Below, one piece after another: positions 7,723 through 58,048 of a stretch of DNA of 64,000 bases. The stretch spans positions 25,628-89,627 of the forward strand of contig JAHJOO010000056.1 in the NCBI GenBank assembly GCA_018820275.1, read 5' to 3'. Numbering within the stretch: the stretch's first letter is position 1; the number at the start of each line of letters is the position of its first letter. The position numbers were made by a program, and so were the translations under genes. The DNA is from Alphaproteobacteria bacterium (lineage in GTDB: Bacteria; Pseudomonadota; Alphaproteobacteria; Caulobacterales; Caulobacteraceae). A model generated the notes under the pieces. The model was not told the origin of the DNA. It searched no databases and saw nothing but the letters and a program-made list of their open reading frames with translations.

Positions 7723-9174
7723 ATGGCGGCCCTGGTGCTGTTCGGCGGCGGCGGCGATCTGGCCATGCGGATGCTGCTGCCCTCGCTCTACTTCCTAGAG
7801 CACGACGGGCTGCTGCCCGACGGGCTGAAGATCATCGGTGCCGCCCGCTCCGAAGAGACGCCCGGCGAGTACGTCGCCAAGGTGAGGTCGTCGGTCGAGA
7901 GCAAGGCCGACGGCGCCTGGTCGGACGAGGTCTGGGCCCGGTTCGCCGCCCGGCTGGACTATCTGGCCGTGGACGCCACCTCGGCCGAGAGCCTGAAGCC
8001 GCTGAAGGACAAGGTCGGCCCGGGCGAGTGCACCAGCTTCCTCGCCGTCTCGCCCTCGCTGTACGCCCGCATCGTCACCGCCATGCGCGCCGCCGGCCTG
8101 GCCGAGGCCGACGACCGGGTGGTGCTGGAAAAGCCGGTCGGACGCGACCTGGAGACCTTCCGCGAGATCGACGACGCGGTGTCGGACGCCTTCTCGGAAC
8201 AGCAGGTGTTCCGCATCGACCACTATCTGGGCAAGGAGACGGTCCAGAACCTGGTCGCCCTGCGCTTCGGCAACACGGTGTTCGAGCCGCTGTGGAACAG
8301 CCAGAACATCGACCACGTCCAGATCACCGTGGGCGAGACCGTCGGCGTCGGCGACCGCTGGCCGTATTACGACGAATACGGCGCGCTGCGCGACATGCTG
8401 CAGAACCACATGCTGCAGCTGCTGTGTCTGGTCGCCATGGAGCCGCCCAGCGACCTGCAGCCGGACTCGGTGCGCAACGAGAAGGTGAAGGTGCTGCGCT
8501 CGCTGCGTCGCATCACACCGGAAGAGGCCGAGCGGGTCACCGTGCGCGGCCAGTACGTGGCGGGGACGAGCGAGGGCAAGCAGGTGCCCGGCTATGACGA
8601 CGAGCGGGGGCTGGATTCGGATACCGAGACCTTCGTCGCCGTGCGCGCCGACATCGACAACTGGCGCTGGGCGGGCGTGCCCTTCTTCATGCGCACCGGC
8701 AAGCGCCTGCCGGAGAAACGCACCGAGATCGTGATCCAGTTCAAGGAGGTGCCGCACAGCATCTTCGAGGGCGGTCGCGGCGTGATCCAGGCCAACAAGC
8801 TGGTGATCGAGCTGCAGCCCGAGGAGGACATCAGCCTGTCGGTGATGAACAAGCGTCCGGGGCTGGACCAGAAGATGCAGCTGCAGCCCATCCGCATGTC
8901 CCTGTCGTGGGGGCAGGAGGACAAGGACGCCCGGCCGCCGCGCCGGCGCATCGCCTATGAGCGGCTGCTGCTGGACGCGCTGAACGGCGACTCCACCCTG
9001 TTCGTGCGCCGCGACGAGGCCGAGCAGGCGTGGAAATGGGTCGACGAGGTGTCGGAGGCCTGGGCCGAGGGTCAGGTGAAGCCGATCGAATACGCCGCGG
9101 GAACGTGGGGCCCGCGCGAGGCGTCCTATCTGCTGGGCCGCACGGGCCGCAGCTGGAACGTCGGAAATGAGTGA
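7723..9174 (+). CDS. zwf: Glucose-6-phosphate 1-dehydrogenase
   Basis: Motifs LFGGGGDLAMR, RIDHYLGKE and EKVKVLR are present. An AAGGAG RBS lies 6 nt upstream of the ATG. Confidence 0.93.
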   Translation: MAALVLFGGGGDLAMRMLLPSLYFLEHDGLLPDGLKIIGAARSEETPGEYVAKVRSSVESKADGAWSDEVWARFAARLDYLAVDATSAESLKPLKDKVGPGECTSFLAVSPSLYARIVTAMRAAGLAEADDRVVLEKPVGRDLETFREIDDAVSDAFSEQQVFRIDHYLGKETVQNLVALRFGNTVFEPLWNSQNIDHVQITVGETVGVGDRWPYYDEYGALRDMLQNHMLQLLCLVAMEPPSDLQPDSVRNEKVKVLRSLRRITPEEAERVTVRGQYVAGTSEGKQVPGYDDERGLDSDTETFVAVRADIDNWRWAGVPFFMRTGKRLPEKRTEIVIQFKEVPHSIFEGGRGVIQANKLVIELQPEEDISLSVMNKRPGLDQKMQLQPIRMSLSWGQEDKDARPPRRRIAYERLLLDALNGDSTLFVRRDEAEQAWKWVDEVSEAWAEGQVKPIEYAAGTWGPREASYLLGRTGRSWNVGNE

Positions 9175-42513: not shown

Positions 42514-44118
42514 ATGGGGGGTGAAGTGTCAAAATCGGCGCTGCTCGCCCATGCCCGATCCGCGGCCAAACACCTTTACGACCCGAAACATGCCCTGGAG
42601 GCACGTGCCGGCGTGTGCCTCGATCTGCTTTCAAAAGACGGTGCCGACGAGCGCCTTGATGGATTCCGGCGGGCTCTGCATGCATTGCCGATAGACGAAC
42701 GCCACTACTGGGTTGGAACGCTCTACACCCTGATGTTGCCAAGCAAGGTGCGGCGGTCGCAAGCCACATACTTTACGCCGCCTCCTGTGGCCGACGCCGT
42801 TGTCGAAATGGCGATTGCGGCTGGTTTCGATCTCGCCAAGGACGACGTGCTGGACCCCGCTGCCGGCGGGGCCGCCTTCCTCTCCACGCTCGCTGGTCGG
42901 ATGTCGATCGCTGAGCTGCCGCCACGCGAGGTATCGCACCGTCTGAACGGCATCGAGATCGACGAGGGCCTTGCGGTGCTTTCGCGTCGGCTGATTGCCG
43001 AACGCCTCGGCGCGCCGCTATCCCGCGAGGTTATCGTCTCAGGCGATGCGCTGCGTTACCCGATCCCAGCCTCATACGGCCTGGTCATCGCGAATCCCCC
43101 ATATGGCCGAGTATCGCTCGACGATGTCTCGGGCAACGCTTGGAAACACGTCGCGCACAGGGGTCACGTCAACAAGTACGCGTTGTTCACCGAGCTGTGT
43201 TTCCGACACGCTAAGCCGGGCGGGGTCGTCGCGCTCGTCATCCCTTCGAGCTTCCGGGCGGGTCCACTTTACGACCGCATGCGCACGTTCATCCGCTCGC
43301 AGGGCGAGGTGCTGAGCATTGGATCAATTGCTGGTCGCGACGGCGTCTTCGTCGACGTGGCGCAGGACATCAGTGTCTTGCTTGCGCGGAAGGGCAAGCC
43401 ACACCCTCGCGGCGCGATGGTATCGTTTCCGGTCATCGGGCGCGCGACCGCGACCGAGGCAGTCGTCGAGCAGGCATTGCCGCAGGAAGCTGGCGATGCA
43501 TGGCCGCTGCCAGCAGCGGATCCGCGCGACTACGGCGGCGCAACACTCGCCGATTACGGCGTCACGGCTCGCGCCGGATATTTCGTTTGGAACAGGGAGC
43601 GGGACAGGCTGGTCCAGAAGTTGGAGCGTCATCAGCGCGGCTACCCCCTCATATGGGCTAAAAATGTGCGCCTGCACGAATATTGCCGGCCCGCAGGCAA
43701 GAACAATGCGAGGGCAGATTTCGTCACGTTCGACGACGACAGCGCAGCGATCATCAAAACCGTAGCCGCCGTCATGCAGAGGACGACCAACGACAAGCAG
43801 CCGCGCCGCTTGATCGCCGCCATGGTCGATCCCGCAGTCATCGAAAAGTGGGGCGGGTTCGTGACTGAGAACCACACGATCGTGCTCACTGCGGACGATC
43901 CCGAGAAGCTGCGAACCGCCGTTGCCTTGCTCAACACCTCCGCGGTGGATCAGCGCTACCGGCGCGTGTCTGGCACCGCGGCTGTCTCCGTCACTCTCCT
44001 GCGGCAGCTGGATTTGCCAGAGCCGTCCGCCTTCGCATCCGCGCTCGTCAATGCAGGTGGCGACACCGAAATCGCTGCGATGACCGCCTATCGGCGGCTC
44101 GCGCTGGCAGACGCCTGA
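42514..44118 (+). CDS. N6-adenine DNA methyltransferase, Eco57I/gamma-class-like, in the DrmMI-like position
   Basis: The SAM motif VLDPAAGGAAFL and the catalytic motif IANPPYG (43093-43107) are present. Its stop overlaps the next start (TGATG). Confidence 0.85.
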   Translation: MGGEVSKSALLAHARSAAKHLYDPKHALEARAGVCLDLLSKDGADERLDGFRRALHALPIDERHYWVGTLYTLMLPSKVRRSQATYFTPPPVADAVVEMAIAAGFDLAKDDVLDPAAGGAAFLSTLAGRMSIAELPPREVSHRLNGIEIDEGLAVLSRRLIAERLGAPLSREVIVSGDALRYPIPASYGLVIANPPYGRVSLDDVSGNAWKHVAHRGHVNKYALFTELCFRHAKPGGVVALVIPSSFRAGPLYDRMRTFIRSQGEVLSIGSIAGRDGVFVDVAQDISVLLARKGKPHPRGAMVSFPVIGRATATEAVVEQALPQEAGDAWPLPAADPRDYGGATLADYGVTARAGYFVWNRERDRLVQKLERHQRGYPLIWAKNVRLHEYCRPAGKNNARADFVTFDDDSAAIIKTVAAVMQRTTNDKQPRRLIAAMVDPAVIEKWGGFVTENHTIVLTADDPEKLRTAVALLNTSAVDQRYRRVSGTAAVSVTLLRQLDLPEPSAFASALVNAGGDTEIAAMTAYRRLALADA

Positions 44119-46865
44119 TGGCACGTAAACGGCCCTATAATCGCCCACCGGGCACGCAGGGACGGGACAATGTGCGGCAGGTGGAGCTTGCCCGGCGCCA
44201 GGCGCTCGTCGCCAAGCTCACAGAGACAGCGACGAAGCGGGCCGCCAATCCAGTCCCACCATTGCAGCCGAAGCCGGAGCAGCCGTCGCGCGACGTGGAC
44301 GGTTACATGGCCGCGATCGCGGCCCATCCGCTTTATCGGCTCGGTGAAAAACACGCCGCAGAGCTCACCCTGACGTACGCGACCCTAGTCCGGTCAGCCG
44401 TTGAGATTGCCGGACAGGGTGACGCCAAGGTCGTGATGCCGTGGCCGCCATCCAAGGTGTCCCCATCGGCAATCGTCTCGCTGCTGACGATCGGCGCGAT
44501 CGGCAGCGCACCCCGCGAACATGTCGAGTTCCAAGGCACGCAGATTCCAAGCCGAGGGCGCGCCGACGAAGTGCGCGCGGTCGTGTTTCCGTACGCCCGC
44601 AGCACACACGCCCAAGCGAGGCAGGTGCAGGTCGATAGGCACGAGTTGGGCCGGATAAACTTCGAACACGTCGCGCGCTATCTCGGCAGCGACAGTGACG
44701 CGGCAAAAGATCTGCATCAGGTTCTCGCACGGGTCCGCCAGCTGAACGGACGCGCGTCTGACGGACGCGAATACGCCGAGTTCGAGCACCCCATCCTTGA
44801 CGAGGTCATTCCCCACGGCCCCGCCGGTGGGGACCGCCCATCCAACAGCTCTGTCCTTTGGCGTACGCGCGCCAAGACCGACATTGGCCGTCAGGCGCGC
44901 TCGGGCGAGGCGGATGATCCCGCCAAAGCCGCATACTTCATGTTCACGGTCCGCCGTGACGACCGGCTGGGCAACGAGCTGCGTGCCATCAAGCGGCCGC
45001 TTGATCTCCTCATCCTCGACCTGTCACGCAACGCTCGGGACCGCATCGGTTGGGACTGGGTGCGACGGGCTGGCGAGATGGTCGCGTCTATGCGGGAGAT
45101 CCACCCCTCGGCAGGCATCCTGGCCGTCGTTGATGATCCATGGTCATATCGCGCAGCCCGTTTTGACGTGCTCGCGAGGAGGCGGACCGGCAAGAATGGC
45201 AAAGCCTTCCCTGCGCATGGAAGCGTCGTCTATTGCCCGACCCCCGGGATACTTCAGGACGTCGGGCAGTGCGCTCCCTCATTCGAAGGTGCGCTGTCCA
45301 TCACTGTTGATGGGTTCTACGGCGACGTCGACCGCAACATCGAGCACCTGCGCGAACTCGCCAACCGCCTATCTGACATGGGGGATTCCGCCGGCGCCGC
45401 GACCGCCCGCAACCTGATGGGGACGGTCCGCCGGTCGGCGAGCTTACCCGGCTCGATCGCCGAGCTAAGCCGCTTTATCGAGCGCGAGACGTCGGCCGCT
45501 ATCGCCGACGACCGTCTCGCGACCTACCGCGCGACCGCCGACATCAGCACTTTGACCGACCCCACCAGCCTCGCGAGTCAGGTCGACGCCGAGAAGGGAG
45601 TGGCGGCTGAAGCCAGGTCTGTGATGCGAACGCTCGACCAGGCAACGCCGATGGCCTCGCTGATCGAGGATGTGATGCAGCCCGCGCTGCGATCGAGCTC
45701 CCGTTCCGTCTTCGTGTTCAGGTCCGACATGATCGCCGAGTTCGCCGCGGATAGGCTGGGCAAGTCGCATCCCAAGCTCGCCGAGCGGATCGGAAGCGGC
45801 GTCATACGCTTTGGCGGCGCACGCGCGCTCAACACCGTCGCCGACGCGCCGGCTTCCGCTCGCAACCAGTTCAAGCGCGCCATCGTCGTCGCCCCCACGA
45901 CGTCGACGATACTGGCCACGCTGGCGGAACCGTGGCTACCCGAGCAGATGGTGTTCCTGGCCGATGCGGATACGCTTGCGTTCGCCGCCCGCGATGCCGC
46001 GCGCCTCGCTAATGAGATCGGCGTTGACGCGCTTGCGGCGCGGCTGCGGACGTTCGCCGAGAAGGCAAACAGCCGCGTAGTGGAGATCGGCCGCCACACG
46101 GTGCAGCTGGATGCGGAGGCACCGTCGGAGGACGTCGAGTTCCCGACCGGTTCGGTAGTCGACCTCACTGGCGGCGGTCGGGGCGAACGCCGGCTGGTCG
46201 AAATCAAGCTCGGCAACGGGCAACGCATCATCGCCCGCCCGTCAACTGGCATGGTCTTGCGGGATGACGGCGCGGCGACGACCACGTTCGTCGAGCGACC
46301 CGCGTCACAGTTAAGACGTGGAGATGAAGTCTGCGTGATCGGAGCTGGGTTCATCGAGCGCGCCCGGTCGCTCGTGAACATCCGCGCGACCGCGGCCGAG
46401 GAAATCCGCGAATACCACAATCAGGTGGCGAAGCGGTTTGCCGCCATACCCGAGGACTCCACGAATGGCCGGCTCCGCGTCCTGGTGGCGCGGATGGGCC
46501 AGCCGGCTGTGCCGATCGAGCGCGCCAGATACTGGATCGACCTGCGTGATGAGATCGACAAGCCGCTCCACGAGGTCGTGCCGCATGCCCCGCAGGACCG
46601 GGACACCTTCATGCGGTTCACAGGGGCGCTCGGGATCGGACAGAAGCTGGCCGAGAGCTTCTGGCTGTGGGCCGTAGTCGCCCAACGTTACCACCGGATG
46701 CGCGCGGGGAACATCTTCCATGACGCCTTCCGCGGCATCCTAACTGATCCCCATGCCGCGCTCGCGAGCAACCGCAACCGGAGCGCCGACATCAGGGCGC
46801 TCCGCGCAATGGCTGAGGAGCACGTCGGGACCGTCGCCAACACGCGGATTATCGAGGCAGTATGA
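44118..46865 (+). CDS. Large uncharacterised protein (915 aa) with no helicase or NTPase motif visible
   Basis: The gene is translationally coupled on both sides (TGATG and ATGA). No Walker A or DEAH motif was found on reading the translation. Confidence 0.7.
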   Translation: MARKRPYNRPPGTQGRDNVRQVELARRQALVAKLTETATKRAANPVPPLQPKPEQPSRDVDGYMAAIAAHPLYRLGEKHAAELTLTYATLVRSAVEIAGQGDAKVVMPWPPSKVSPSAIVSLLTIGAIGSAPREHVEFQGTQIPSRGRADEVRAVVFPYARSTHAQARQVQVDRHELGRINFEHVARYLGSDSDAAKDLHQVLARVRQLNGRASDGREYAEFEHPILDEVIPHGPAGGDRPSNSSVLWRTRAKTDIGRQARSGEADDPAKAAYFMFTVRRDDRLGNELRAIKRPLDLLILDLSRNARDRIGWDWVRRAGEMVASMREIHPSAGILAVVDDPWSYRAARFDVLARRRTGKNGKAFPAHGSVVYCPTPGILQDVGQCAPSFEGALSITVDGFYGDVDRNIEHLRELANRLSDMGDSAGAATARNLMGTVRRSASLPGSIAELSRFIERETSAAIADDRLATYRATADISTLTDPTSLASQVDAEKGVAAEARSVMRTLDQATPMASLIEDVMQPALRSSSRSVFVFRSDMIAEFAADRLGKSHPKLAERIGSGVIRFGGARALNTVADAPASARNQFKRAIVVAPTTSTILATLAEPWLPEQMVFLADADTLAFAARDAARLANEIGVDALAARLRTFAEKANSRVVEIGRHTVQLDAEAPSEDVEFPTGSVVDLTGGGRGERRLVEIKLGNGQRIIARPSTGMVLRDDGAATTTFVERPASQLRRGDEVCVIGAGFIERARSLVNIRATAAEEIREYHNQVAKRFAAIPEDSTNGRLRVLVARMGQPAVPIERARYWIDLRDEIDKPLHEVVPHAPQDRDTFMRFTGALGIGQKLAESFWLWAVVAQRYHRMRAGNIFHDAFRGILTDPHAALASNRNRSADIRALRAMAEEHVGTVANTRIIEAV

Positions 46866-49800
46866 AGGGTCTGTCGAACACGAAGCTGTCTGGGATCGAT
46901 GTCGAGCTCAAGGAAGCGGTCTGCGACGCGCTGGTGAATGCGCTCGTCGAACGCGTGAGCGGCACCGACGAGCGAGGGCAGACGATCTACGGCGGATCGC
47001 CGCGACGTGGAATATTCGCTGGCCAGCTGCTCCCGCGCTTCGACGTCAGCGGCGCCCTCGACGAGACCACCGACATCCGCATCGCCGCGATCGGGATTGA
47101 CTTTGTGGTGGGTGCGAACGGCTCCGCCGCTATCTCAGCGACGCCCCGATTCTCCGTATACGTGCGAGTCATCCCACAGTGGCGCGACCTCTCTGGCGGT
47201 GGCGGCCAGCTCGATTTCGACTTCAAGCTGCAGAAAGCGATCCAGCAGCAGATCGACGCTGCGATCCGCGTCGACCGGACGACCGCCCTGAAGGCCGCCA
47301 ACCTCGAACGGCCCGACTGGAAGGCGATGGACGAGAATCGCCGGTCGAAGGTGCGCGCCGAGCGGGCCCAAATCCTCGCCGATGTGCGCGTCAAGGCCTA
47401 CGCTGCATTCGGGATCAAGCTGGTGTCGGGCGTGCCCGAAGAACCTGCCCCGACCCAAGAGCCCCCGGCAGGAAACGGGGACGCCACCGGGGAATCCACC
47501 GAACAGCCGGCGCCGATCTCGCGTCTCATCCGCGAGGGCCGAGAGCTACCGCTGACGCTCGTCGACCCCGCGCCGATACCGGGCAAGTGGCGGCGGCTCG
47601 ACCTCTCCCTCCCAACCTTTGATTTCGATAGCGAAATGGGGTCGCCGGCCCTCGCCGCCGCGCTCGTCACCTACAATGCCAGCCTCGCGGCGGCGGTGGC
47701 GGCCCAACTCGAAGCGTGGGCTACCGGGGAGGGTGCCGCCGAGGCATGGCGCGACGTCAACGTCTCACCCGGCGACACCTTGGACGAGGCCCGGTGGAAT
47801 GCGGCCGTCGCGGCGCTTGCCACCAGGCCCATCGATCGTACGCGCGTCATCCCTGATCTTTCCCGCATCGCCCTGAAGGTCGAGCGCCAGGTCGACTTCC
47901 TGGATTCCACTCGGCTGTCGCTGCGGATCATGCTGGATAACCAGTCACCCGAGCCCACGCCGCAGGACGCGCGCGGTCGCTGCAACACCGTCTTCGGCGC
48001 CGGACTGACACTCGCCCTTCCCGCCGCCGCGCACCGGCCGCTCCGGCTCGATAGGGTTGAGCCCTCCTACCGCTTCCGCGACCACCTCGACTATCCGGCG
48101 ATCGGGCTCAACTGCGGGGTCGAGGCGGTCGAAGCCGGGGACCTACTCACTCTGGGCACCACCGCCGCCCCTCGCTTCTCGCAACCGCGGATCGTTGCCC
48201 GAAATATTGACCTGCCCTTTCAGTTTGCGATTCTCAAGGATCGGTCCTTCGACGCGAAACGGCTGCTCGAGCTGCCGCGTGCATACAGCGAATGGATAGA
48301 CGGCCAAGAGAAGCGGCTGCGCGACACCGTAACGAAGGGCCTGACACGGGACGATGCGGCGGTCGAAAAGGCTCGTCTGGCGAAGGACATCGCTGCCCAG
48401 CGCGCCGAGGCTCGCTACATCGAGCGCGGCGTCGAGATCCTGATCGCGTCGAAGGAGGCCAGCGACCAATTGGCCGGCAAACCGCCGGGCGATGGGGGCG
48501 ACCTCGCGCGACGCGCCGCGCCCTGGATGGCATGGACGCTCACCAACGAGGCCTTCGCGTTGCGCGATGCGCACGACACGAGCCGAGGCTGGCGCCTGTT
48601 CCAGATGGCGTTCGTGCTCTCCCACATCCCGGTGTTTGCATCCCGCATGGCCGAGTGGCGCGAATTCCACGACTCGATGCTCGACGAGGACGGAGCCAGC
48701 CTGCTCTACTTCCCGACCGGCGGCGGCAAGTCGGAGGCGTTCTACGGCACACTGCTGTTTGCCATGTTCCTCGACCGCCTGCGCGGCAAGGACCGCGGGG
48801 TCACCGCCTTAATCCGCTATCCCCTGCGGCTCCTGACACTCCAACAGGCGCAGCGATTGCTCAAGCTGGTCGTGCGCGCCGAAATGGTGCGCCGTCGCCA
48901 GAAGGTCGGCGGGTGGCCATTCGAGATGGGCTTCTGGGTGGGAAGCCAGAACACGCCTAACCACTATGGTGCGTTTCGCGCCGATATCCCGTTCGCCAAC
49001 GATGCTGACTTCGCTGACGACAGCACGCTCGACGGTGAGACGGGCGACGAAGACCAACGCGCCCGCGGCCGCCGATACGCCGAGGCCCGCGAAGCTTTCG
49101 ACAAGATCCCCGAGTGCCCGGTTTGCGGAGAACCCACTGGTTTGCGGCGGGACGAGAACGAGGGTCCGACCGGGCGGCGCGTGGCCATCGTGTGCTTCAA
49201 CGACAGGTGTGCGTGGAACCGCGAGCACGGCCGGCGACACCCTCTCCCGTTTCTACTGACCGACGATGCCATCTACGCCCGCGCGCCGGCGATTGTGCTC
49301 GGCACCGTCGACAAGCTGGCCATGCTGGGCCAGCATACCGGCACGATCTCCAAGGTGCTCGGCATGTTCGGGCTCGCCCGCCGTGTCGATCAATGGGGGA
49401 ACCTGTATACGCCGCGGCGCGAGGAGGACCTGCGCCGCGATCCGGCCGACGACAACAGCTCGAACGTGCATCCCGCATACGCGGACGGGAAGCGGGTCTT
49501 CCACGATCCGTTCCCGTCGCTGATCATCCAGGACGAGGCGCACCTTCTGGAGGAGAGCCTCGGGACGTTCAGCGGCCTGTTCGACACGCTGCTCGACGCG
49601 GCGTTCGAGGAGATCGCCGAGATGGGCGGCGATGGACTGGACGTTGCCCGGCGATGGACCGGCGACGGCTGGGGCGCTCCTCGGATGCCGAAGGTCATCG
49701 CGGCGACGGCCACAATCTCGGCGCCCGAACGCCAGCTCGAGACACTCTACCAGCGGCACCCGTTGCGCTTCCCCTATCCCGGTCCGGATCTCTACCATTC

Positions 49801-51190
49801 CTTTTTCGCCGAGCCGGCACCGCCGCCGGCCGTGAACCCTGAGCGAGTCGAGCTGGCGAAGCGGCTACCGTTCGCGCAGGCACCCGAGCAGACCGCACCA
49901 TGGATGCGCCTTTACGTGTCGCTGATGACGAACGATGCGACGCACACGGTCACCACGGTCGGGGTGCTAGCCGCGTTCCACGGCATCGTCACGGCGCTGT
50001 GGGACGGCATGATCGCGGACGACCGCCGCGCTACGACCATCGCGTCGATCCGGGCGGCGGTGTCGTCGGGCCGTGCGGGGGACTGGCACCGGGCGGCGGT
50101 CGACCGTGCCCTCGCGGAGGGCCGCCAGGACGAGATCATGGCGCTGGTGGACCTGCACCGGATTGCGCTCGCATACGTTACTAACAAAAAAGGCGGCGAC
50201 CAGATCATTGACGCCCTGAGCGCCGCAGTCGAGCACCAGCATCGCCGCCTCGGCCGCGAGAACTCGCCGTTCGCCAGCCGCCTGATCTCGGGCGGCATCG
50301 ACATGAAGGATATCCAGCGCGTGATGGAGGAGGCCGAGACCTCCTTCGATGGCAAAGACTATCCCGACATCGGCGCGACGGTTCGGAACATCGTCGCAAC
50401 CTCGGCGATCAGCCACGGCGTCGACGTCGACCGCTTCAACAGCATGTTCTTTGCGGGGCTGCCGTCCGACATTGCCGAATACATCCAGGCCTCCAGCCGC
50501 GTCGGCCGCACTCACGTTGGATTCGTGATGCTGCTGCCGACGCCGCAGAACCGGCGTGACCGATACGTTGTGGAGACGCACGACATTTTCCACCGCTTCC
50601 TCGAGCGGATGATCGCGCCGCCCGCTGTCGAGCGCTGGGCGGAGAACGCGATCAAGCGCGCGATGGCGTCGTATGTGCAGGCGTGGGCGATGCTGCGCGA
50701 GGCCCGCGAGTTCATCAGGCAGGACGACGCCAAGAAGCCCGACGTCCTCCAGATGGACCAGGTCAGCCGCCTCGCGTCGCTCGCGCGCCTAAACCACGTC
50801 GCCCTCTGCGAGGAGATCGGCGACTTCATGCTCAGGGCCAGCGGCTACACCGGAAAGGGCCCATCAAAGCTGGGCGCGCCGCACTACGAGGAGTTCTACC
50901 GCGCCCTCGTCGACAAGCAGGTCGACGTGTTCGTCCGCAGCATCGCGAGCCGCGGCACGACCTCGAGCCTGCGGGAATACTGGGATGACCTTCCGGCATT
51001 CCAGAAACCGATGACGTCGCTGCGCGACGTGGACGAGGCCGGCTACATCGTCGCGGCGGGTCGCGACCCGCTCGCGCGCAGCCGATCGACCGACATCGAC
51101 CGTGGACAGCTGGCCGAGGTCATGCGCGCCATCAGGACCCAGCGGGGCACCGCCTCGGACATGGATGCCGACGGAGGAAGCGATGGCTGA
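46862..51190 (+). CDS. DrmA-like superfamily-2 helicase (1442 aa)
   Basis: Motif I FPTGGGKSEAF lies at about 48713-48733 and motif II IIQDEAHLL has its DEAH at 49532-49543. C-terminal helicase motifs are present (ATSAISHGVDVDRF, QASSRVGR), and there is a long N-terminal extension. Confidence 0.85.
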   Translation: MKGLSNTKLSGIDVELKEAVCDALVNALVERVSGTDERGQTIYGGSPRRGIFAGQLLPRFDVSGALDETTDIRIAAIGIDFVVGANGSAAISATPRFSVYVRVIPQWRDLSGGGGQLDFDFKLQKAIQQQIDAAIRVDRTTALKAANLERPDWKAMDENRRSKVRAERAQILADVRVKAYAAFGIKLVSGVPEEPAPTQEPPAGNGDATGESTEQPAPISRLIREGRELPLTLVDPAPIPGKWRRLDLSLPTFDFDSEMGSPALAAALVTYNASLAAAVAAQLEAWATGEGAAEAWRDVNVSPGDTLDEARWNAAVAALATRPIDRTRVIPDLSRIALKVERQVDFLDSTRLSLRIMLDNQSPEPTPQDARGRCNTVFGAGLTLALPAAAHRPLRLDRVEPSYRFRDHLDYPAIGLNCGVEAVEAGDLLTLGTTAAPRFSQPRIVARNIDLPFQFAILKDRSFDAKRLLELPRAYSEWIDGQEKRLRDTVTKGLTRDDAAVEKARLAKDIAAQRAEARYIERGVEILIASKEASDQLAGKPPGDGGDLARRAAPWMAWTLTNEAFALRDAHDTSRGWRLFQMAFVLSHIPVFASRMAEWREFHDSMLDEDGASLLYFPTGGGKSEAFYGTLLFAMFLDRLRGKDRGVTALIRYPLRLLTLQQAQRLLKLVVRAEMVRRRQKVGGWPFEMGFWVGSQNTPNHYGAFRADIPFANDADFADDSTLDGETGDEDQRARGRRYAEAREAFDKIPECPVCGEPTGLRRDENEGPTGRRVAIVCFNDRCAWNREHGRRHPLPFLLTDDAIYARAPAIVLGTVDKLAMLGQHTGTISKVLGMFGLARRVDQWGNLYTPRREEDLRRDPADDNSSNVHPAYADGKRVFHDPFPSLIIQDEAHLLEESLGTFSGLFDTLLDAAFEEIAEMGGDGLDVARRWTGDGWGAPRMPKVIAATATISAPERQLETLYQRHPLRFPYPGPDLYHSFFAEPAPPPAVNPERVELAKRLPFAQAPEQTAPWMRLYVSLMTNDATHTVTTVGVLAAFHGIVTALWDGMIADDRRATTIASIRAAVSSGRAGDWHRAAVDRALAEGRQDEIMALVDLHRIALAYVTNKKGGDQIIDALSAAVEHQHRRLGRENSPFASRLISGGIDMKDIQRVMEEAETSFDGKDYPDIGATVRNIVATSAISHGVDVDRFNSMFFAGLPSDIAEYIQASSRVGRTHVGFVMLLPTPQNRRDRYVVETHDIFHRFLERMIAPPAVERWAENAIKRAMASYVQAWAMLREAREFIRQDDAKKPDVLQMDQVSRLASLARLNHVALCEEIGDFMLRASGYTGKGPSKLGAPHYEEFYRALVDKQVDVFVRSIASRGTTSSLREYWDDLPAFQKPMTSLRDVDEAGYIVAAGRDPLARSRSTDIDRGQLAEVMRAIRTQRGTASDMDADGGSDG

Positions 51191-53417
51191 GGCGAACGGC
51201 GGCACCAAGGACTGGCGCAGCGGCGGCGTTGGACGCAGGCCGTCCGCGTTCGGCGGCGGGCGGAGCGAACCAGATCGCCTCGAACCGCCGACGATGTCGC
51301 GTTCGCGCGTGCAGTTGGCCAGCTCGTATGCGCCGGGCGTGCTCATGACGTGGGAGGGCGGAAAGGGAATCTGCCGAACGGTCCCGCTCGCGAACGACAT
51401 CACCAAGGAGCTTAGGCCGACCACGATCGAGCTGATCTACGAGAATCTGCGCGACTTCGTGACCAACTGGCGCGAACGCGCGATGAAGGCGGTCCCCGAC
51501 GCCCTCCCCGAACTCGTACTCGACGCCCCGTTCCTCAACTCCCGCACGGGCGAGGCGAACCTCGAACGGTCGGACTTCCAGATGACGGGACCGGACCGCG
51601 TCGGATACGTCCCCTATCCGCTGCTGTACCGGTGCGGCGTCTGCGGATCGACCCGCGAATACGAGAGCGTCGCCGACCAATGCCGGCAGCCGCTTCCGAA
51701 GAAGTGCCATGACCACGATGCGCGCTGGACCCAGGTCGATGTCGTCTACGCGCACTGGTCGGGCGACATCCAGCCGCTCAGCCCATTCAACTTCAACTAT
51801 GACGCGCAAAGCGGCGAGGTGCGTCAGATCAGGATGTGCACCTGCGGGTCGAACAGCTTCAAGCTCCTAAACTCGGCACCGGTGTTCTCGGAATGGAAGT
51901 ATGTCTGCGAGGACTGCGGCAACTCGCGCACGCTGAAGAAGGCCAATCCTGATGTGCTCGCGCGCCTGCAGGCGGATCAGCTCGCCGGGGGCCGCACCTT
52001 CCAGTTCGTCGAGGTCGACATGCTGCCGGTATCATACCGGGCCAACTCCACCTTCTACCCCCAGCGCACCAGCTTCATCGAGTTTCAGGATAGTTCGGTC
52101 GTCGACCTGATGACGTCGCAGCGGACCGGCGCTCTGACAGCGAAGCTCGCGCAGATCCACAACATCCCGTTCGATGAACCGACCGACAACGAGATCAGGG
52201 AGAAGGTCGAGGCCTCCCCGGCGCATACGGGAGAATGGGACGATTACTTCGGGTTCATGGCCATGGCCCAGCGCGCGGACGAGAGCGGGCGACCCGATCG
52301 CGCCCGAAATTACCGGGACCAGGCGACCGAACTGCGCGAGGGCTGGTTCGCGGCCGGCATCGTCGACCGAGGTCACCTCGGCAGCCCGGGCGTCCTGCGC
52401 GCGATCGCACTTCGCGAGGAATGGACCCGTCGCTACGACCCGATCCGGCTGACCGTCCAGCACGACGCATTCACCCGCGAGCATATCGACGAGGCTATGT
52501 CGCGGCATGCCGCCGTCGACGTGATGGAGCCTGACATCACGCTGACCGACGTCGTGAACGATCCCGAGAGAAGGGCGCGCTACCAAGCGTCAACCGGCAA
52601 CCTGCTCGCTCACTTGGGCGTGAAGCGCCTTGTACTCGTGAGGGGCCTGCCGATCTGCGAGTTCAGCTTCGGCTATTCCCGCGTCTCCTCGACTCCGGTC
52701 TACAAGCGAGAATACCAGGGACAGAGCATCGATATGCCGGTGCGTCTCAAGGCTTTCGACCAACTTCCTATCCAAGGGACAAAGCGGCCGATCTACGTCA
52801 CGCAGCAGCGGAATGAGGCGCTCTACTTCAAGCTTGACGAGGCGCGCGTCATCCGCTGGCTGAAGGCCAACGCGGTCAGCGACGTGCCCGACGAGGCGCT
52901 GGGTCGCGCGTTTCTCGAGCGCTACGAGGACTTTGGTCCCTTTCTTGAGATGTTCAAGGACCGCGAGGGGACGGGCGGCTACCCGAGGACCGTTCCGGCC
53001 TACGTCTATCTCCTCCTCCACACGCTGTCGCACCAAATGATGCACTCGCTCGCGGACACGTCGGGCATCGATCGCGACGGAACTGGTGAGCACATCTTCC
53101 CCGCCGACCTCGCCTTCGTGATCTACCGAAAGGGGATGACGCCGGACCTTGGCAACATATCCGCGATGTGGCGCAACCATTCCGACGAGTTCCTCCGCCG
53201 GGGGATCGACCCGCGGACGCTGCGGTGCGGCTCGGGCAGCCTGTGCGACGCGCGGGGTGGAGCTTGCCCAGCCTGCATCATGGTGTCGGAGGTGAGTTGC
53301 ATCGCGTCAAACCTTCTGCTGTCGCGCGCCGTGCTCAAGGGCGGGCGAGGACCAGAATGGGAACCTAGGTCGGCTCCCGACCTCGTCGGCTTCCTCGATC
53401 CCGCGGTCGCCGGGTGA
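51183..53417 (+). CDS. DrmB-like DUF1998 protein
   Basis: The C-terminal four-Cys cluster (CGSGSLCDARGGACPACIMVSEVSC) is typical of DUF1998, and there are extra Cys pairs (CGVCGS, CEDCGNS). The ATG at 51183 overlaps the DrmA-like stop. An alternative ATG lies at 51294 (MSRSRVQLASSYAPGV). Confidence 0.8.
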   Translation: MAEANGGTKDWRSGGVGRRPSAFGGGRSEPDRLEPPTMSRSRVQLASSYAPGVLMTWEGGKGICRTVPLANDITKELRPTTIELIYENLRDFVTNWRERAMKAVPDALPELVLDAPFLNSRTGEANLERSDFQMTGPDRVGYVPYPLLYRCGVCGSTREYESVADQCRQPLPKKCHDHDARWTQVDVVYAHWSGDIQPLSPFNFNYDAQSGEVRQIRMCTCGSNSFKLLNSAPVFSEWKYVCEDCGNSRTLKKANPDVLARLQADQLAGGRTFQFVEVDMLPVSYRANSTFYPQRTSFIEFQDSSVVDLMTSQRTGALTAKLAQIHNIPFDEPTDNEIREKVEASPAHTGEWDDYFGFMAMAQRADESGRPDRARNYRDQATELREGWFAAGIVDRGHLGSPGVLRAIALREEWTRRYDPIRLTVQHDAFTREHIDEAMSRHAAVDVMEPDITLTDVVNDPERRARYQASTGNLLAHLGVKRLVLVRGLPICEFSFGYSRVSSTPVYKREYQGQSIDMPVRLKAFDQLPIQGTKRPIYVTQQRNEALYFKLDEARVIRWLKANAVSDVPDEALGRAFLERYEDFGPFLEMFKDREGTGGYPRTVPAYVYLLLHTLSHQMMHSLADTSGIDRDGTGEHIFPADLAFVIYRKGMTPDLGNISAMWRNHSDEFLRRGIDPRTLRCGSGSLCDARGGACPACIMVSEVSCIASNLLLSRAVLKGGRGPEWEPRSAPDLVGFLDPAVAG

Positions 53418-53971
53418 CACGCGAGGTCCTGATATCGCCGAAGGCGACGGCCAGGCTGGTCGTTACAATGCCTCCCGAGCCAAGCAGACTTGGGACCGCA
53501 TTGGCCGAAGACATCGCGAGCGACTACGTCACCCTCACGCCCACAACCGACGCGTTCCGCCACATCGCCTTGCTGGCCCGCGAGCAGCTCACGATCATGG
53601 TCCCATACATCGACTCGGTCGGCGCGGACTGGGCGGCGGAGATGTTCGAAGGCACGACCGCGGCCGAGCGCACGCTCGTGATCAGGGAAGCGGCGCAGCT
53701 CGGCAGGTGCGGCAGCCCGGGACGGCGCCTCGAGCGCGCCGCGACGCGGATCATCGACTATGGCGGGGCGGACCTCAGCCAGGAGACCTTCCACGCCAAG
53801 GTCGTGCTGGCGGACGGTGTCGCCGCATACGTCGGGTCAGCAAACCTGCTAAGGCGCTCGAAGATGGCGAACCTCGAGTGCGGGATGCTTGTCGAGGGTC
53901 CAGCGGTGCAGGCCGTCAAGGTTCTCCTGGATGCCGTGATCTCAGCCGCCAGCCTCTCAAATACACGTTGA
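53414..53971 (+). CDS. DrmC-like PLD-family (HKD) nuclease
   Basis: A single HKD motif FHAKVVLADGVAAYVGSANLLRRS is present, with the His codon at 53792-53794. The GTG start overlaps the previous stop (GTGA). Confidence 0.85.
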   Translation: MTREVLISPKATARLVVTMPPEPSRLGTALAEDIASDYVTLTPTTDAFRHIALLAREQLTIMVPYIDSVGADWAAEMFEGTTAAERTLVIREAAQLGRCGSPGRRLERAATRIIDYGGADLSQETFHAKVVLADGVAAYVGSANLLRRSKMANLECGMLVEGPAVQAVKVLLDAVISAASLSNTR

Positions 53972-54118: not shown

Positions 54119-55429
54119 CTATCGCTTGTGCAGAAAGTGCTCTGGTCGGAGCTCGGCGAAAACGCCTTGTCGACGCCAATGTTCAGCTTCGGCCTTCATC
54201 TCCGGCGTCCGCTTCTCGGCGTCGAGAATCTCCAGAACCAATAGATTGTCCTCGGCGGATACGTGCGGCCAAGCGACGCCGATGAACGTCGTCTCCTTCG
54301 CAAAGGTGTCGGCCGCAACGACGAGATGTTGTCGCAGATGGCGGAGCACCAAGTCCTCTTGCGCCTGTTCGGACATCCAGTCGGGGCGCTTGGGATAGGC
54401 CAGCCACAGATAACGGACGGTGGGGTCCGTAGGTGAGGGAACCGTCGCCGCCCAGAAGGTGGTCTGGTCCGGTTCGTCCAGAATGCTCTTGAGGGCTGCA
54501 GCAATCATTCTCCTCTGGAAACGCCCCTCCCTCGCAAGCATTCGCATGGCTCGCTCGTGGTTCGACGGATCCTGGGCGCGAACGCCAGCTAGGTGCGCTC
54601 GGTGGAACTCTTCCACCAAACGATCGATCACATAGCTTCCGGCGTTCTCCCGGAGCGTGTGCGCCGCGCGGCCAGAGGTCTCATAATCCTTCCAGGCACC
54701 CTGTCGCGCGCGCCCACTCGAAAGTCCTTCCGGCGACACTTCGAACCGCCCGCTGCGAGTCCAGGCCTCCGTCGCGGCTGCGAGCAAATCGGCTTCCCGA
54801 AAGGCGCAACCCGGGTTCGACCTCAAGGTCGCCTCCCGGCTCGAAAGATACTCCACTAGGTCGGGCAAGGTGTCGAGATGGCCCAAGATCAGATCCACGT
54901 CCCGGCCTTCGAAGACGTGTACGAACCGGTCCTGTACGTAGAGCGGCCCGATCGTGAACGGATCCGACGGCGAGTGATCCGACCAAGTCAGCCCCGGCCA
55001 ACCGTCGGGCGTTACGCCCGGTTCACCATGCGGACGGGCCACATTTATCAGATGGTAGGCGCGTTCTCCGACTGGCGCGAGCTCATACCATAAGCGCGAC
55101 CGCGCTCCACGGTCGGTGAAGACAGCCGCCCCCGGTCGTTCTAGCCGTCGCACGGCGCCCCCTAGCTGTCTGACGCCTTCCAGGACGGCGGCTCGATGCC
55201 AGCGCTCCCATGCGACCGGTAAGGGCACGGTGAGATCGAACCGGCACGCCTTGTCCGAGAAGACGAGAACGTCGCGCCCAAAGGGAACGATCAGATCCGA
55301 GAGTTCCTTGCCCGGCTTTCCGAACGGGTTCGCGATGGTCCATGGCTTCAAAAATGCTTGGTGTCCCAATGACGCCAGATAAGCCTCGGACAAGCTTCCG
55401 CCCATCTGCCGAAGGTCCTCGTTCGTCAC
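54119..55429 (-). CDS. Hypothetical protein (436 aa), possibly with an N-terminal nuclease-like module
   Basis: It has a 4-nt overlap with the upstream DUF4238 gene. The N-terminal block GKELSDLIVPFGRDVLVFSDKAC resembles endonuclease-fold core motifs, but this is a weak assignment made by eye. Confidence 0.6.
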   Translation of the reverse strand: MTNEDLRQMGGSLSEAYLASLGHQAFLKPWTIANPFGKPGKELSDLIVPFGRDVLVFSDKACRFDLTVPLPVAWERWHRAAVLEGVRQLGGAVRRLERPGAAVFTDRGARSRLWYELAPVGERAYHLINVARPHGEPGVTPDGWPGLTWSDHSPSDPFTIGPLYVQDRFVHVFEGRDVDLILGHLDTLPDLVEYLSSREATLRSNPGCAFREADLLAAATEAWTRSGRFEVSPEGLSSGRARQGAWKDYETSGRAAHTLRENAGSYVIDRLVEEFHRAHLAGVRAQDPSNHERAMRMLAREGRFQRRMIAAALKSILDEPDQTTFWAATVPSPTDPTVRYLWLAYPKRPDWMSEQAQEDLVLRHLRQHLVVAADTFAKETTFIGVAWPHVSAEDNLLVLEILDAEKRTPEMKAEAEHWRRQGVFAELRPEHFLHKR

Positions 55430-56313
55430 CGACTCGGTTCTCCTTCCGCAGGCTGAACCGCATTTTTCGGAAAATGCTCTTCGATGAGGGTCTCGTGCGA
55501 CCTATCGAAGGCGATGACGACCGACCGCGCCTGCTCTACGACCTTGCGATTAAGCGTCTCCACGAAGGTCTGTTCGGGGATCATCATCATCAGAGGCATT
55601 CGTTGAGGGGACCGATGCGCGATGAAGATGGAACGAGGACCCAACGGCATGACGATCACTCCATTGGGGGTGCTGAAACTCCCGAAGGTCACGGGTTGAT
55701 CTGAGAGGAGTAGGGTGAGCCCCGGGTCGGTCAGGTCTCGCACCCCCCATTCCATGTTGACGATCAACTCCCCCATGCGCGGCGCATCACACAGACGCTT
55801 CACCACCATTCGTCCGAGATCCTCGTCGAACCGGCGGTCACGGGTAGACGAAAGATAATCCGCCACCGTCGCGGGCCAGTCATCTCCTCGCGTGGCCTGA
55901 TAGCGAGCCTCCAGTGAATCCCCCTCGCCTCGATACTCCCGCGCCTCCGCGATGGCGCTGATCTCTCGCACCCGCGCAGGACTGCGGCTGATGAGGGACA
56001 TGACGAAGCGGGCCCAGTCGGAAGCCATGATCGGCGATGCCGGCCGGCCGCCGACGGCGACGACTTCCTTCAGGGCGAGAGCCGCTCGCGAGTCGAGCTG
56101 TTGCATGAAGCGGGATTCGATCGACTGTCGATCTTCGGGGTCGCCTCCCTGGAGAGCGTACAGATCGACCTCGAACCCGATAGCCGACGGCGGCTTCCGT
56201 TTTCGATCGATCGCCTCATGGGGCCTACGATAACACCACACATCGTCTTCGTCGGCGGCCCAGCGCCGAATGAAGAACTCCGGGACGTAGTGGTGCTTCC
56301 TAGGATCGGCCAT
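55426..56313 (-). CDS. DUF4238 domain protein
   Basis: The N-terminal KHHYVPEFFIRRW matches the DUF4238 hallmark HYVPxFYLxxF. Confidence 0.7.
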   Translation of the reverse strand: MADPRKHHYVPEFFIRRWAADEDDVWCYRRPHEAIDRKRKPPSAIGFEVDLYALQGGDPEDRQSIESRFMQQLDSRAALALKEVVAVGGRPASPIMASDWARFVMSLISRSPARVREISAIAEAREYRGEGDSLEARYQATRGDDWPATVADYLSSTRDRRFDEDLGRMVVKRLCDAPRMGELIVNMEWGVRDLTDPGLTLLLSDQPVTFGSFSTPNGVIVMPLGPRSIFIAHRSPQRMPLMMMIPEQTFVETLNRKVVEQARSVVIAFDRSHETLIEEHFPKNAVQPAEGEPSR

Positions 56314-56339: not shown

Positions 56340-56711
56340 TCATTCTTCCCCCCAAACGGCCGCACTGCCACTATCGAAGAAGGAGTATGTCGTCGTGCTA
56401 CGGGCCGCGCGCTGAAAGTGCGCGAGCCGGCCGTCAAGTGCAGCCACCTTCGCGTCCGTCGGCTCGTAGACGCCAAAATACAGATGCGGCGTCTCGGAGG
56501 TGAAGATCGCCCTGTAGATGTGAGAGTCGTTTTCCGCAGCGCTATGGCCGTAGACGAACACCGGAGCACGGTTCTCAGACAAGGTCCGATGACAGTGGCG
56601 GAGATAGGAGACGGAGTTGATCTTCTTCATCTTCTCAATGGCCGAGGCCTCGGCCACATAGACGGGAAGGTGCCTCATCTCCCGAATTTCACGAGTAATC
56701 GTCGCGATCAC
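56340..56711 (-). pseudogene. C-terminal fragment of a DUF4917-like protein with no proper start, probably truncated
   Basis: VFVYGHSAAENDSHIYRAI resembles the DUF4917 C-terminal block, from recollection. The frame stays open upstream to 56861 with no start codon and runs into the transposase region. Confidence 0.4.
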
Positions 56712-56818
56712 GCCGGCGCCGGTGTCAAGGGCCTTGAATATCTGGTGGTGACGCAGTTTGAACTTAGGGGTTAGGTATCGTGATCCAAACGATGCCAGGG
56801 GATGGGGGTCTGGGTCGT

Positions 56819-58048
56819 CTAGGGGTAGTAGCCCCGCTTGAAATAGTCCCCCAGGCAGACATTACAAATCGAATGGTCATCGGGCTGTATGGCGACCGAT
56901 GCGGCGATCGCGTCTTCCAGCGAATAGTAGGGCATCCAGACCCCCGACGACTTGGCACCGGCCTTGCGGCCCTGGCCGTCGCGGCAAAAAGCGCATTCTG
57001 CTTTGTGAACCTTGGTAGATTGGTGCGTGGTGCTCGAATAAACCCAATGCGACGGGGCCAGCACGACATCGTCGTCCGAAACTTCGATCAGGATCGGCTC
57101 GGACGGCGGCTCTTCGCCCTGCTCGGACTCCACCAGTCGGCGTTCGGCCGTGAAGTCGTCCGCCATCGTGAGCATGTCGGCGACCGACCAGAGCCGCGTT
57201 GCAAGGCCGGCCGCGATCGCCGCCGGGTCCCTCTTGATCCATTGGCGGCTGCGCGTTCCATCGGGCTGAAGGCGAGGCCGCATCGGGCGCGGAATCCAAC
57301 AGTAGTTGTGATAGACGGCCCACATGGCGATGTGCCGCTCGTGGTTCAGCATCGTTTTGGAGAAGGCGTTGGTCTTCCGGTTGAAGCGCCGGTTTCCCAT
57401 TCGCAGATTCAGATTCTGGCGCTCGATGTATGACGTGTGGGTGTCTTCGACGCGCCAGTCGCCGGAGCCCTTTTTTCGATTGGCGCCGATGTAGCGTCCG
57501 CCCGGCGCCTTGTTCCCGTTCTTGTCCTGCTTGTCGTATTGCTTCTCCAGGATGCCGTAGTCAGCGTCCGCGCCAAACGCGTTCCTGAAAGCCTTCGTGT
57601 AGGCCTTCAGGCCATCGGTCGCGAGGTGCGGCCGAACGACGAACCCGCCGTCCGGGCTCCGTTCCAATTTCCCCGCCACGTTCTTTAGGAACTCGCTGGC
57701 GTTGAGAGCGTCCTGATCGCCGAGGTGGTATTCGAAGATCAGCTTAGAATCCGCGCACATGGCGAGGTAGGTCCAGACACGGCCAGCGCCCTCGGGTGGG
57801 TCGATCATGTCCGACAAGTTCTTTTCCTTCGCCCCAACGAACGAATGCAGTTCGTCGGCTTGGATGTTGGCGATGTGCAGATTCTTGAGCGTCTTCATGT
57901 GGGCGATGGCCCAATCACCGACTTCGGCGAACAGCTTGGCGACGGTGTTCTGACTGACGTCGAAGATGCGCTCGCAGGAACGCTGCGACATGCCCTCGCA
58001 CAGGCAATGAAGCATACGAACGCGCAGGTCCTGTGGCTTCCGGTTCAT
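56819..58048 (-). mobile_element. IS1-family-like single-ORF transposase gene. The ends of the IS element were not determined.
   Basis: An N-terminal HTH (CEGMSQRSCERIFDVSQNTVAKL) is followed by a DDE triad context (QADELHSF, ATDGLKAY, SYIERQNLNLRM). There is also an unusual Cys-rich C-terminal extension of about 110 aa. Confidence 0.7.

Follow-up and report, generated by a model that had tools for sequence, protein, structure and literature searches.

A Three-Gene DUF4917–DUF4238 Cassette with a Putatively Nuclease-Like Third Protein in an Alphaproteobacterial Defense Island

Proteins of the DUF4238 family are known from a single-gene anti-phage system that was cloned from a P2-like phage hotspot by Rousset et al. 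(2022), who demonstrated protection of E. coli from T7 by the DUF4238 protein on its own (PMC9122126). The initial annotation of the locus described here had given this entry (Rst_DUF4238) as a single-gene one but had placed it in satellite hotspots. A second family of importance for this work, DUF4917, includes SliP of C. jejuni, which acts as a sirtuin and was described as a secreted deacetylase, not as a defense protein; the closest modeling/threading template for it was ThsA of the Thoeris system (PMC10421069). The corresponding PADLOC model, PDC-S21, is listed as a single-gene candidate. We analyzed a 64,000-nucleotide (nt) stretch of an alphaproteobacterial contig (JAHJOO010000056.1, positions 25,628 to 89,627; hereafter the window), in which a DUF4238 gene overlaps a gene for a protein of 436 amino acids (aa) close to a DISARM-like cluster.

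As judged from the comparison of related loci, the conserved unit is a 3.2 kb cassette, DUF4917–DUF4238–436-aa gene, which is inherited and moved as one piece. The word-indexed homolog search provided two close copies of it. The first one, L097, shares 99.6% identity with the window over a stretch reaching from DrmB into the middle of DUF4917, with three aa differences in the DUF4238 protein and three in the 436-aa protein. The second one, L005, shows approximately 78% DNA identity (78% also for DUF4238) and carries these three genes in unchanged order, with a 30-nt spacer followed by a GTGA overlap. The blastn comparison of L097 with L005 gave a single segment of 3,204 aligned columns and 78.8% identity, extending from the DUF4917 start codon to the stop codon of the 436-aa gene between unrelated flanks. 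The window matches L005 only from the junction with an insertion sequence (IS) to the same stop codon. The spacing within the cassette is 26–30 nt between DUF4917 and DUF4238 and −4 nt between DUF4238 and the 436-aa gene. In the comparison with L005, the synonymous divergence (dS) of DUF4917, DUF4238, and the 436-aa gene was 1.03, 1.13, and 1.06, and the ratio of non-synonymous to synonymous divergence (dN/dS) was 0.055, 0.115, and 0.111, respectively, with gene lengths identical in both copies. The codon comparisons thus indicate purifying selection on all three genes.

We interpret the cassette, with modest confidence, as a co-transcribed stack of three separable defense-type genes moving as a block between defense islands. 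The block lies next to DISARM in the window and L097, and in L005 between TIR-domain genes upstream and a 219-aa protein and an AAA_15/DUF2813 ATPase downstream. Each of the three genes would be able to act alone, with no obligate complex, although such functional independence is inferred from their distribution. The features of the region are as follows:

54119–55429, minus strand: 436-aa gene, third gene of the cassette; family without a model in the libraries searched, with an N-terminal PD-(D/E)xK-like domain.
55426–55429, minus strand: GTGA start/stop overlap of DUF4238 and the 436-aa gene, with the Shine–Dalgarno-like site GGAAGGAG upstream; read directly from the sequence.
55426–56313, minus strand: DUF4238 gene (295 aa), middle gene of the cassette; full-length Pfam PF14022.
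56340–56743, minus strand: 3′ remnant of DUF4917 (SIR2-like, PADLOC PDC-S21), first gene of the cassette; residues ~191–321 of 324 left.
56744–58048 (far end unmapped), minus strand: IS1-family insertion sequence; transposase open reading frame (ORF) at 56819–58048 (409 aa).
51102–53971, plus strand: DrmB (51102–53417) and DrmC (53414–53971), end of the DISARM-like cluster; context, outside the cassette.

Both ORFs of the initial annotation, of 295 and 436 aa, are present at these positions on the minus strand, and the translational coupling proposed for them is real and conserved within the lineage. The GTG start of the 436-aa gene overlaps the TGA stop of DUF4238 by 4 nt, the junction being ggaaggag-N10-GTGA. 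The overlap is kept in L097 and in L005, where GGAG lies upstream of it and the 436-aa protein has no internal Met that could offer another start. Among the overlaps in bacterial operons, one of 4 nt between start and stop is the most frequent, hence it indicates co-translation and not functional dependence. In one metagenome contig (L092, 4316–7458), the start of a gene of the 436-aa family overlaps by 4 nt the end of a housekeeping neighbor, a groEL-like chaperonin gene; this overlap is of the same kind as that in the window, so such overlaps alone say little about function. The order of the two genes raised the question of a toxin–immunity couple, in which a toxic 436-aa nuclease-like protein is restrained by the coupled upstream DUF4238 protein. 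An overlapping gene placed upstream is typical of antitoxin–toxin pairs, and the overlap is conserved in the lineage. However, the 436-aa family occurs overwhelmingly without DUF4238, with unrelated neighbors or none, and so does not need this partner, and DUF4238 is a stand-alone 295-aa defense protein with its own invariant polar residues, which makes this explanation highly improbable.

The first gene of the cassette, overlooked in the initial annotation together with the IS that cuts it, is represented in the window by a remnant that shares the strand of DUF4238 and lies 26 nt upstream of it. The remnant matches positions 196–311 of the 311-position Pfam DUF4917 profile (E 2.9e-11) and the PADLOC model PDC-S21 (E 4e-27). 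L097 and L005 have an intact gene of 324 aa with a complete DUF4917 domain; the window keeps only the last ~130 residues and hence an incomplete domain. It also differs from the single-gene PDC-S21 candidate in heading an operon. The tblastn search with the intact L005 protein matched residues 191–321 in the window, and the first 190 codons were found nowhere in its 64 kb. Homology to L097, which lacks the IS, ends at window position 56743. The window lacks all of L097 upstream of this junction, i.e., a Ser/Thr kinase gene and the first 190 DUF4917 codons; hence, the insertion came with a deletion or rearrangement. The transposase was recognized by NCBIfam transpos_IS1 (E 5.8e-14, below the curated cut-off) and Pfam DDE_Tnp_IS1 (E 1.3e-5). 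No terminal inverted repeats were found at the IS ends, and the plasmid matches gave no boundary either. The insertion has destroyed DUF4917 and would have cut DUF4238 and the 436-aa gene off from their original promoter. The two surviving genes are intact and, if expressed, would probably rely on read-through from the IS, the transposase of which lies on the same strand.

The assignment of the second gene to DUF4238 was upheld by a full-length match of the 295-aa protein to Pfam PF14022 (E 6.7e-34; 118 bits, the cut-off being 27; positions 1–279 of the 281-position profile). Residues 7–18 form the motif HHYVPEFFIRRW; 59 relatives show almost no variation at its H7, H8, and P11. E66, D74, D205, and N255, invariant in the family, are all present in the window protein, and R110 is likewise listed with H7, H8, and these four among the invariant polar residues, a pattern that suggests an enzyme. 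In common with Rst_DUF4238, the window protein belongs to PF14022 over its full length; it has a typical size and is encoded in a defense island. Unlike it, it is the product of the middle gene of three and is translationally coupled to the downstream one. The AlphaFold2 (AF2) model (mf296e499e3f6; pLDDT 85, pTM 0.80) had no PDB fold match at E 0.001, and no significant sequence match was found in the PDB; thus, no mechanism could be proposed. The modeled fold of this validated defense family appears to have no solved relative. The protein matched none of the PADLOC v2.0.0 models, and neither tblastn of a phage collection nor a scan of viral contigs found any DUF4238.

The initial annotation had regarded the 436-aa protein as an obligate-looking partner of DUF4238 in a two-component arrangement. 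The analysis of neighborhoods does not bear this out. The two genes adjoin only in the lineage formed by the window, L097, L005, and L006 (at least 78% identity), where DUF4238 is always coupled to the 436-aa gene, and the unit that travels there has three genes, not two. Outside this lineage, the 436-aa family is not enriched next to DUF4238, the very outcome that the initial annotation had named as refuting its proposal: none of ~76 other loci of the family adjoined a DUF4238 gene. No member of the 436-aa family neighbored any of eight DUF4238 loci (L014–L016 at 46–49% identity, and the plasmid loci L101–L105). With three DUF4917 loci and the listed plasmid records included, the three families were never found next to each other. 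The next-closest homologs of the 436-aa protein (38–52% identity) had no DUF4238 or DUF4917 nearby. The neighbors met instead were varied. One homolog (L001) lies on an integrative and conjugative element (ICE), where dinB, an RNase T gene, and a DISARM cluster are its neighbors, another (L004) near a HicB–PIN pair, and others next to CHAT-TPR (L007), Mrr-STAND (L009), or relaxase (L012) genes. In Asticcacaulis sp. AC466 (L011, 5191–16186), the family gene is situated between dnd-like genes (an SMC-like ATPase, a protein similar to phosphoadenosine phosphosulfate reductase, and a cysteine desulfurase) and an imuB–dnaE2 error-prone polymerase cassette. Asticcacaulis was the only relative found in the scan of genome representatives, probably due to narrow peptide patterns.

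Further searches gave the same picture. A hidden Markov model of DUF4238 built from the lineage found one other match among 80 further metagenome loci (L043), approximately 3 kb off and not adjacent. In the Pfam scan of 113 immediate neighbors, DUF4238 was absent from the 25 families listed, a list that excludes families seen in a single neighbor. Genes tightly linked to the DUF4238 relatives were unrelated to each other and to the cassette genes, none of them coming from the other two families, and the tightly linked neighbors of the 436-aa family, checked likewise, were not related to each other. The 45 plasmid records with DUF4238, taken in full, share no accession with the 25 records listed for the 436-aa family; the 92 unlisted records of this family are mostly enterobacterial, and enterobacteria are absent from the DUF4238 list. 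The closest plasmid-borne DUF4917 (59.6% identity) had neither partner adjoining. Since each family is found without the others in every relative examined outside the lineage, an obligate two-gene system is not supported.

The same data bear on the possibility that the cassette is one integrated multi-component defense system, of which the window holds a crippled copy lacking the first component. DUF4238 and/or the 436-aa protein would then sense infection or damaged/foreign DNA and control a DUF4917 effector depleting NAD+; alternatively, DUF4238 and the nuclease-like protein would form a complex. The three genes are inherited in one sharply bordered block, with equal dS and under strong purifying selection, and both the GTGA coupling and the short spacers are conserved, all of which fits such a system. 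So does the sirtuin-like nature of DUF4917, for whose C. jejuni member ThsA is the closest template (PMC10421069). On the other hand, no two of the families co-occur outside one shallow lineage, no plasmid accession is shared among the listed records, and the cassette proteins equal their solo relatives in length and domain make-up, with no added interaction module. Moreover, a DUF4238 protein works alone in E. coli (PMC9122126). Altogether, we consider an integrated system unlikely, though clearly worth keeping in mind, and prefer the stack of separable genes.

The third gene was studied most closely. Its ORF is, on the evidence of alignments, a genuine gene and not a high-GC artifact, because homologs exist, 2,470 cluster representatives match its profile, and dN/dS versus L005 is 0.111. 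At 50% identity clustering, the family comprises at least these 2,470 clusters (E ≤ 1e-3), 925 of which match at E ≤ 1e-30. The window protein had no match in Pfam, PADLOC, or NCBIfam, and its only library match was PHROG 18195 (E 1e-26), of unknown function. Searches of Pfam and NCBIfam yielded no housekeeping homolog either, in line with the initial annotation. Most members are longer (median 493 aa), and roughly one in three carries a SEC-C zinc motif at its C-terminal end, a tail absent from the window protein and its close relatives. For 42 members searched against Pfam, this tail was the only match. The tail accounts for the NCBI name "SEC-C metal-binding domain-containing protein" and for some spurious PADLOC matches. 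Of these, the models E2, E1-E2, and PDC-S12 were rejected, as they cover only the 20–40 SEC-C residues at the end of longer members. Also rejected was "Rugutis" (PMC11381338), a lactococcal SEC-C protein with a different architecture (N-terminal SEC-C, 359 aa).

The N-terminal part of the protein is consistent with a nuclease. The motif GKELSDLIVPFGRDVLVFSDK, residues 40–60, contains E42, D45, S58, and K60. Together with E15 and Q88, these residues are invariant in 244 sequences, barring gapped rows and single exceptions at S58 and K60. D59 varies, being V, I, or N in a few sequences, which fits an S-x-K strand. Also (nearly) invariant in this set are W30, W74, R76, W77, H171, T187, D190, E212, D269, R303, and R306. 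The AF2 model (pLDDT 82, pTM 0.83) predicts a helix at 13–22, strands at 45–50 and 53–61, and a helix at 70–96. E15 is located on the first long helix, D45 opens a strand, S58-x-K60 closes the next one, and Q88 lies on the following helix. The predicted element order at residues 13–132 is right for a PD-(D/E)xK core, but all Foldseek matches had E values of at least 1e-3 and low TM-scores. The best local matches in two libraries were mostly to nucleases of this class, among them CidB nuclease domains, MGME1, the putative exonuclease 3l0a, and Cas4 SSO0001. Lambda exonuclease and viral PD-(D/E)XK and Cas4-like proteins also belonged to them, and a viral Cas4-like nuclease had the highest probability (0.93; E 0.094).

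The likeness to the RecB/Cas4/lambda-exonuclease group therefore consists in the order of elements (Glu helix, Asp strand, x-K strand, Gln helix) and in weak fold matches. The difference lies in the Ser replacing the second acidic residue and in the ~300 further residues without counterpart, to which the SEC-C motif is often added. This remaining part, a helical Arg-rich region with an invariant ExRxxRR and a C-terminal alpha/beta domain, matches nothing. An SxK variant with Glu supplied from elsewhere occurs in the Cfr10I/NgoMIV-type restriction enzymes, and in the 436-aa protein the supplier could be E42 or E15. The N-terminal domain is likely but unproven to be a Mg2+-dependent PD-(D/E)xK-type nuclease of the RecB/Cas4 kind in an SxK variant. 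Of the endonuclease-fold core proposed in the initial annotation, the nuclease-like reading is retained, with weak to moderate support.

Several observations weigh against the interpretation of the cassette as a stack of separable defense-type genes. Just two independent copies of it are known (window/L097 and L005), and a stack and a system are indistinguishable by conservation; tight spacing and co-inheritance are equally expected of a true three-component system. SIR2-like effectors often work with separate partner proteins in known defense systems. A role in phage defense is putative for the 436-aa family and for DUF4917. As to the nuclease, no significant fold match was obtained (best Foldseek E 1e-3 in the PDB and 6e-3 among viral models in BFVD, whole-chain TM-score < 0.2). 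No Pfam nuclease model matched, sequence searches of the PDB with two profiles gave nothing significant, and the canonical D...(D/E)-x-K motif is absent, with SxK in place of (D/E)xK. The hhalign comparison with two single nuclease-family sequences from the fetched loci gave nothing as well. Finally, genes of the metagenome loci were called by a greedy longest-ORF heuristic that mis-called at least one neighbor (upstream in L005).

Members of the 436-aa family were met on plasmids, ICEs, and prophages and in defense islands. Their surroundings vary widely, and in most cases no other gene shares the strand closely, the family gene standing alone or set off by clear gaps. Functions in defense or in mobile elements are common among the immediate neighbors, which include DNA methyltransferases, GmrSD, TIR, Shedu, HerA, AAA_21, and integrases, and some members sit beside housekeeping genes, e.g., groEL and sucC. 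A family member is carried by 117 plasmid records, 90 of them conjugative, and by six viral contigs; tblastn of the phage collection gave no matches. Conjugative plasmids of Klebsiella, Citrobacter, Escherichia, and Enterobacter, IncN plasmids among them, encode a 491-aa member annotated only by its SEC-C domain. In the IncN plasmid pJF-WMKPCN1 (L098, NZ_KX881941.1), this gene (5001–6476) is placed between the replication gene and a resolvase, with ardK and mucB close by.

In L001 and L017, the sequence GAACAGAAGCAGAAC, an alphaproteobacterial LexA-box pattern (GAAC-N7-GAAC), was found 23–34 nt upstream of the family gene (431/435 aa). Of 76 upstream regions, 2 contained the pattern, compared with none of 76 in-gene controls. 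The sites are listed below:

L001, ~7944–8000: LexA-box site in the region shared with divergent dinB.
L017, ~5955–6000: LexA-box site in the region shared with divergent dinB.

Other members lie near imuB–dnaE2 (L011) or mucB. Part of the family may thus be damage-inducible, which is compatible with defense or with another mobile-element function. These contexts raised the alternative that the 436-aa family is not anti-phage but a mobile-element cargo with another DNA-directed role, e.g., an SOS/damage-induced DNA-processing enzyme, a plasmid establishment factor, or an anti-restriction factor, its proximity to DUF4238 being incidental. Members beside a relaxase (L012), on an ICE (L001), between rep and the resolvase of IncN plasmids near ardK and mucB, and beside groEL and sucC would agree with it. 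So would the repeated links to translesion polymerases (dinB in L001 and L017, imuB–dnaE2 in L011), the LexA boxes, and a LexA-domain fusion partner in a low-GC subclade. However, many neighbors are classic defense genes (GmrSD, TIR, Shedu, HerA, Mrr-STAND, DISARM), and SOS control and defense are not exclusive. Furthermore, the region upstream of the cassette showed no LexA box in either L097 or L005, and the boxes of L001 and L017 may act on the divergent dinB alone. We find such a cargo role rather improbable, and continue to favor a defense-type gene that became part of a stack.

The fusion partner was found in a low-GC clade with members 53–83% identical, in which the family gene is divergent to a gene for a fusion of a LexA DNA-binding domain, an S24 self-cleaving peptidase, and an N6/N4 DNA methyltransferase (476–633 aa). 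The fusion was confirmed by Pfam scans in five loci; L049 and L030 had a truncated LexA-like ORF only. The paired loci are as follows:

L037, 540–3601.
L080, 4437–7440.
L089, 2279–5677 (L093 is identical in sequence).
L078, 3069–6044.
L052, 4049–7137.
L049, 1–2450.
L030, 1–2048.

The shared intergenic region is 26–119 nt long and, in the loci checked, contains the DnaA-box-like sequence TTATCCACA (TTGTCCACA in L037) just upstream of the family gene. The pairing resembles a module of restriction-modification type tied to a damage-sensitive repressor. A nuclease-like gene beside a methyltransferase follows the logic of restriction-modification and thus supports a DNA-directed activity. A wider proposal would take the members of the 436-aa family to be stand-alone SxK-variant PD-(D/E)xK nucleases acting in defense or inter-element conflict, often under LexA/SOS control, one of which was recruited here with DUF4917 and DUF4238 into a new three-component system. 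This proposal we hold to be doubtful.

The defense-island context assumed in the initial annotation for the two genes was borne out by the DISARM neighbor and by the surroundings in L005 and L097. The G+C content of the 30–59 kb region is 0.60–0.69 compared with 0.66–0.77 in the remaining window, as expected of an island. The adjacent cluster had been described as DISARM-like, and its genes for DrmB (E 8e-14) and DrmC (E 3.5e-10) indeed match PADLOC models. Upstream of them lie genes for a 1442-aa helicase, a 915-aa protein, and an N6 methyltransferase. The stop codons of DrmC and the convergent 436-aa gene are separated by 147 nt, in which no terminator, Rfam family, or unusually stable structure was found.

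A homologous DISARM cluster in a different arrangement is present in L001 (1–5844 versus 42514–51190 in the window; aa identity of 53% for the methyltransferase, 41% for the 915-aa protein, and 51% for the helicase), where it lies on the ICE ~2 kb from a 50%-identical gene of the 436-aa family. The family and this type of DISARM are thus neighbors in two diverged lineages. The 915-aa protein (window 44118–46865) had no Pfam match; its 41%-identical counterpart occupies the same position in the L001 cluster. Although DISARM directly adjoins the cassette in the window and L097, the cassette is convergent to it, and the L005 cassette has no DISARM. Neither the DUF4238 nor the 436-aa protein matched any DISARM model in PADLOC. 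The 436-aa gene as a DISARM accessory was rejected as a general rule, with L004, L005, L007, L009, L012, and L017 being devoid of DISARM.

The DUF4238 protein of this locus is a further member of a known single-gene defense family, encoded in a lineage-specific operon with two other defense-type genes. Under the favored interpretation, the cassette would be a clean example of single-gene defense candidates joined in one transcription unit and shifted together from one island to another. Through the 436-aa protein, a large, widespread, and conserved family comes into view that has enzyme-like invariant residues and yet no Pfam, PADLOC, or NCBIfam model, and that sits also on the clinically common IncN plasmids. 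This family and its LexA–methyltransferase-linked clade, which lie outside the original finding and whose suggested roles we infer, seem the more interesting object. The LexA–peptidase–methyltransferase clade, if our reading of it is true, would represent an unusual tie of a restriction-like module to DNA damage.

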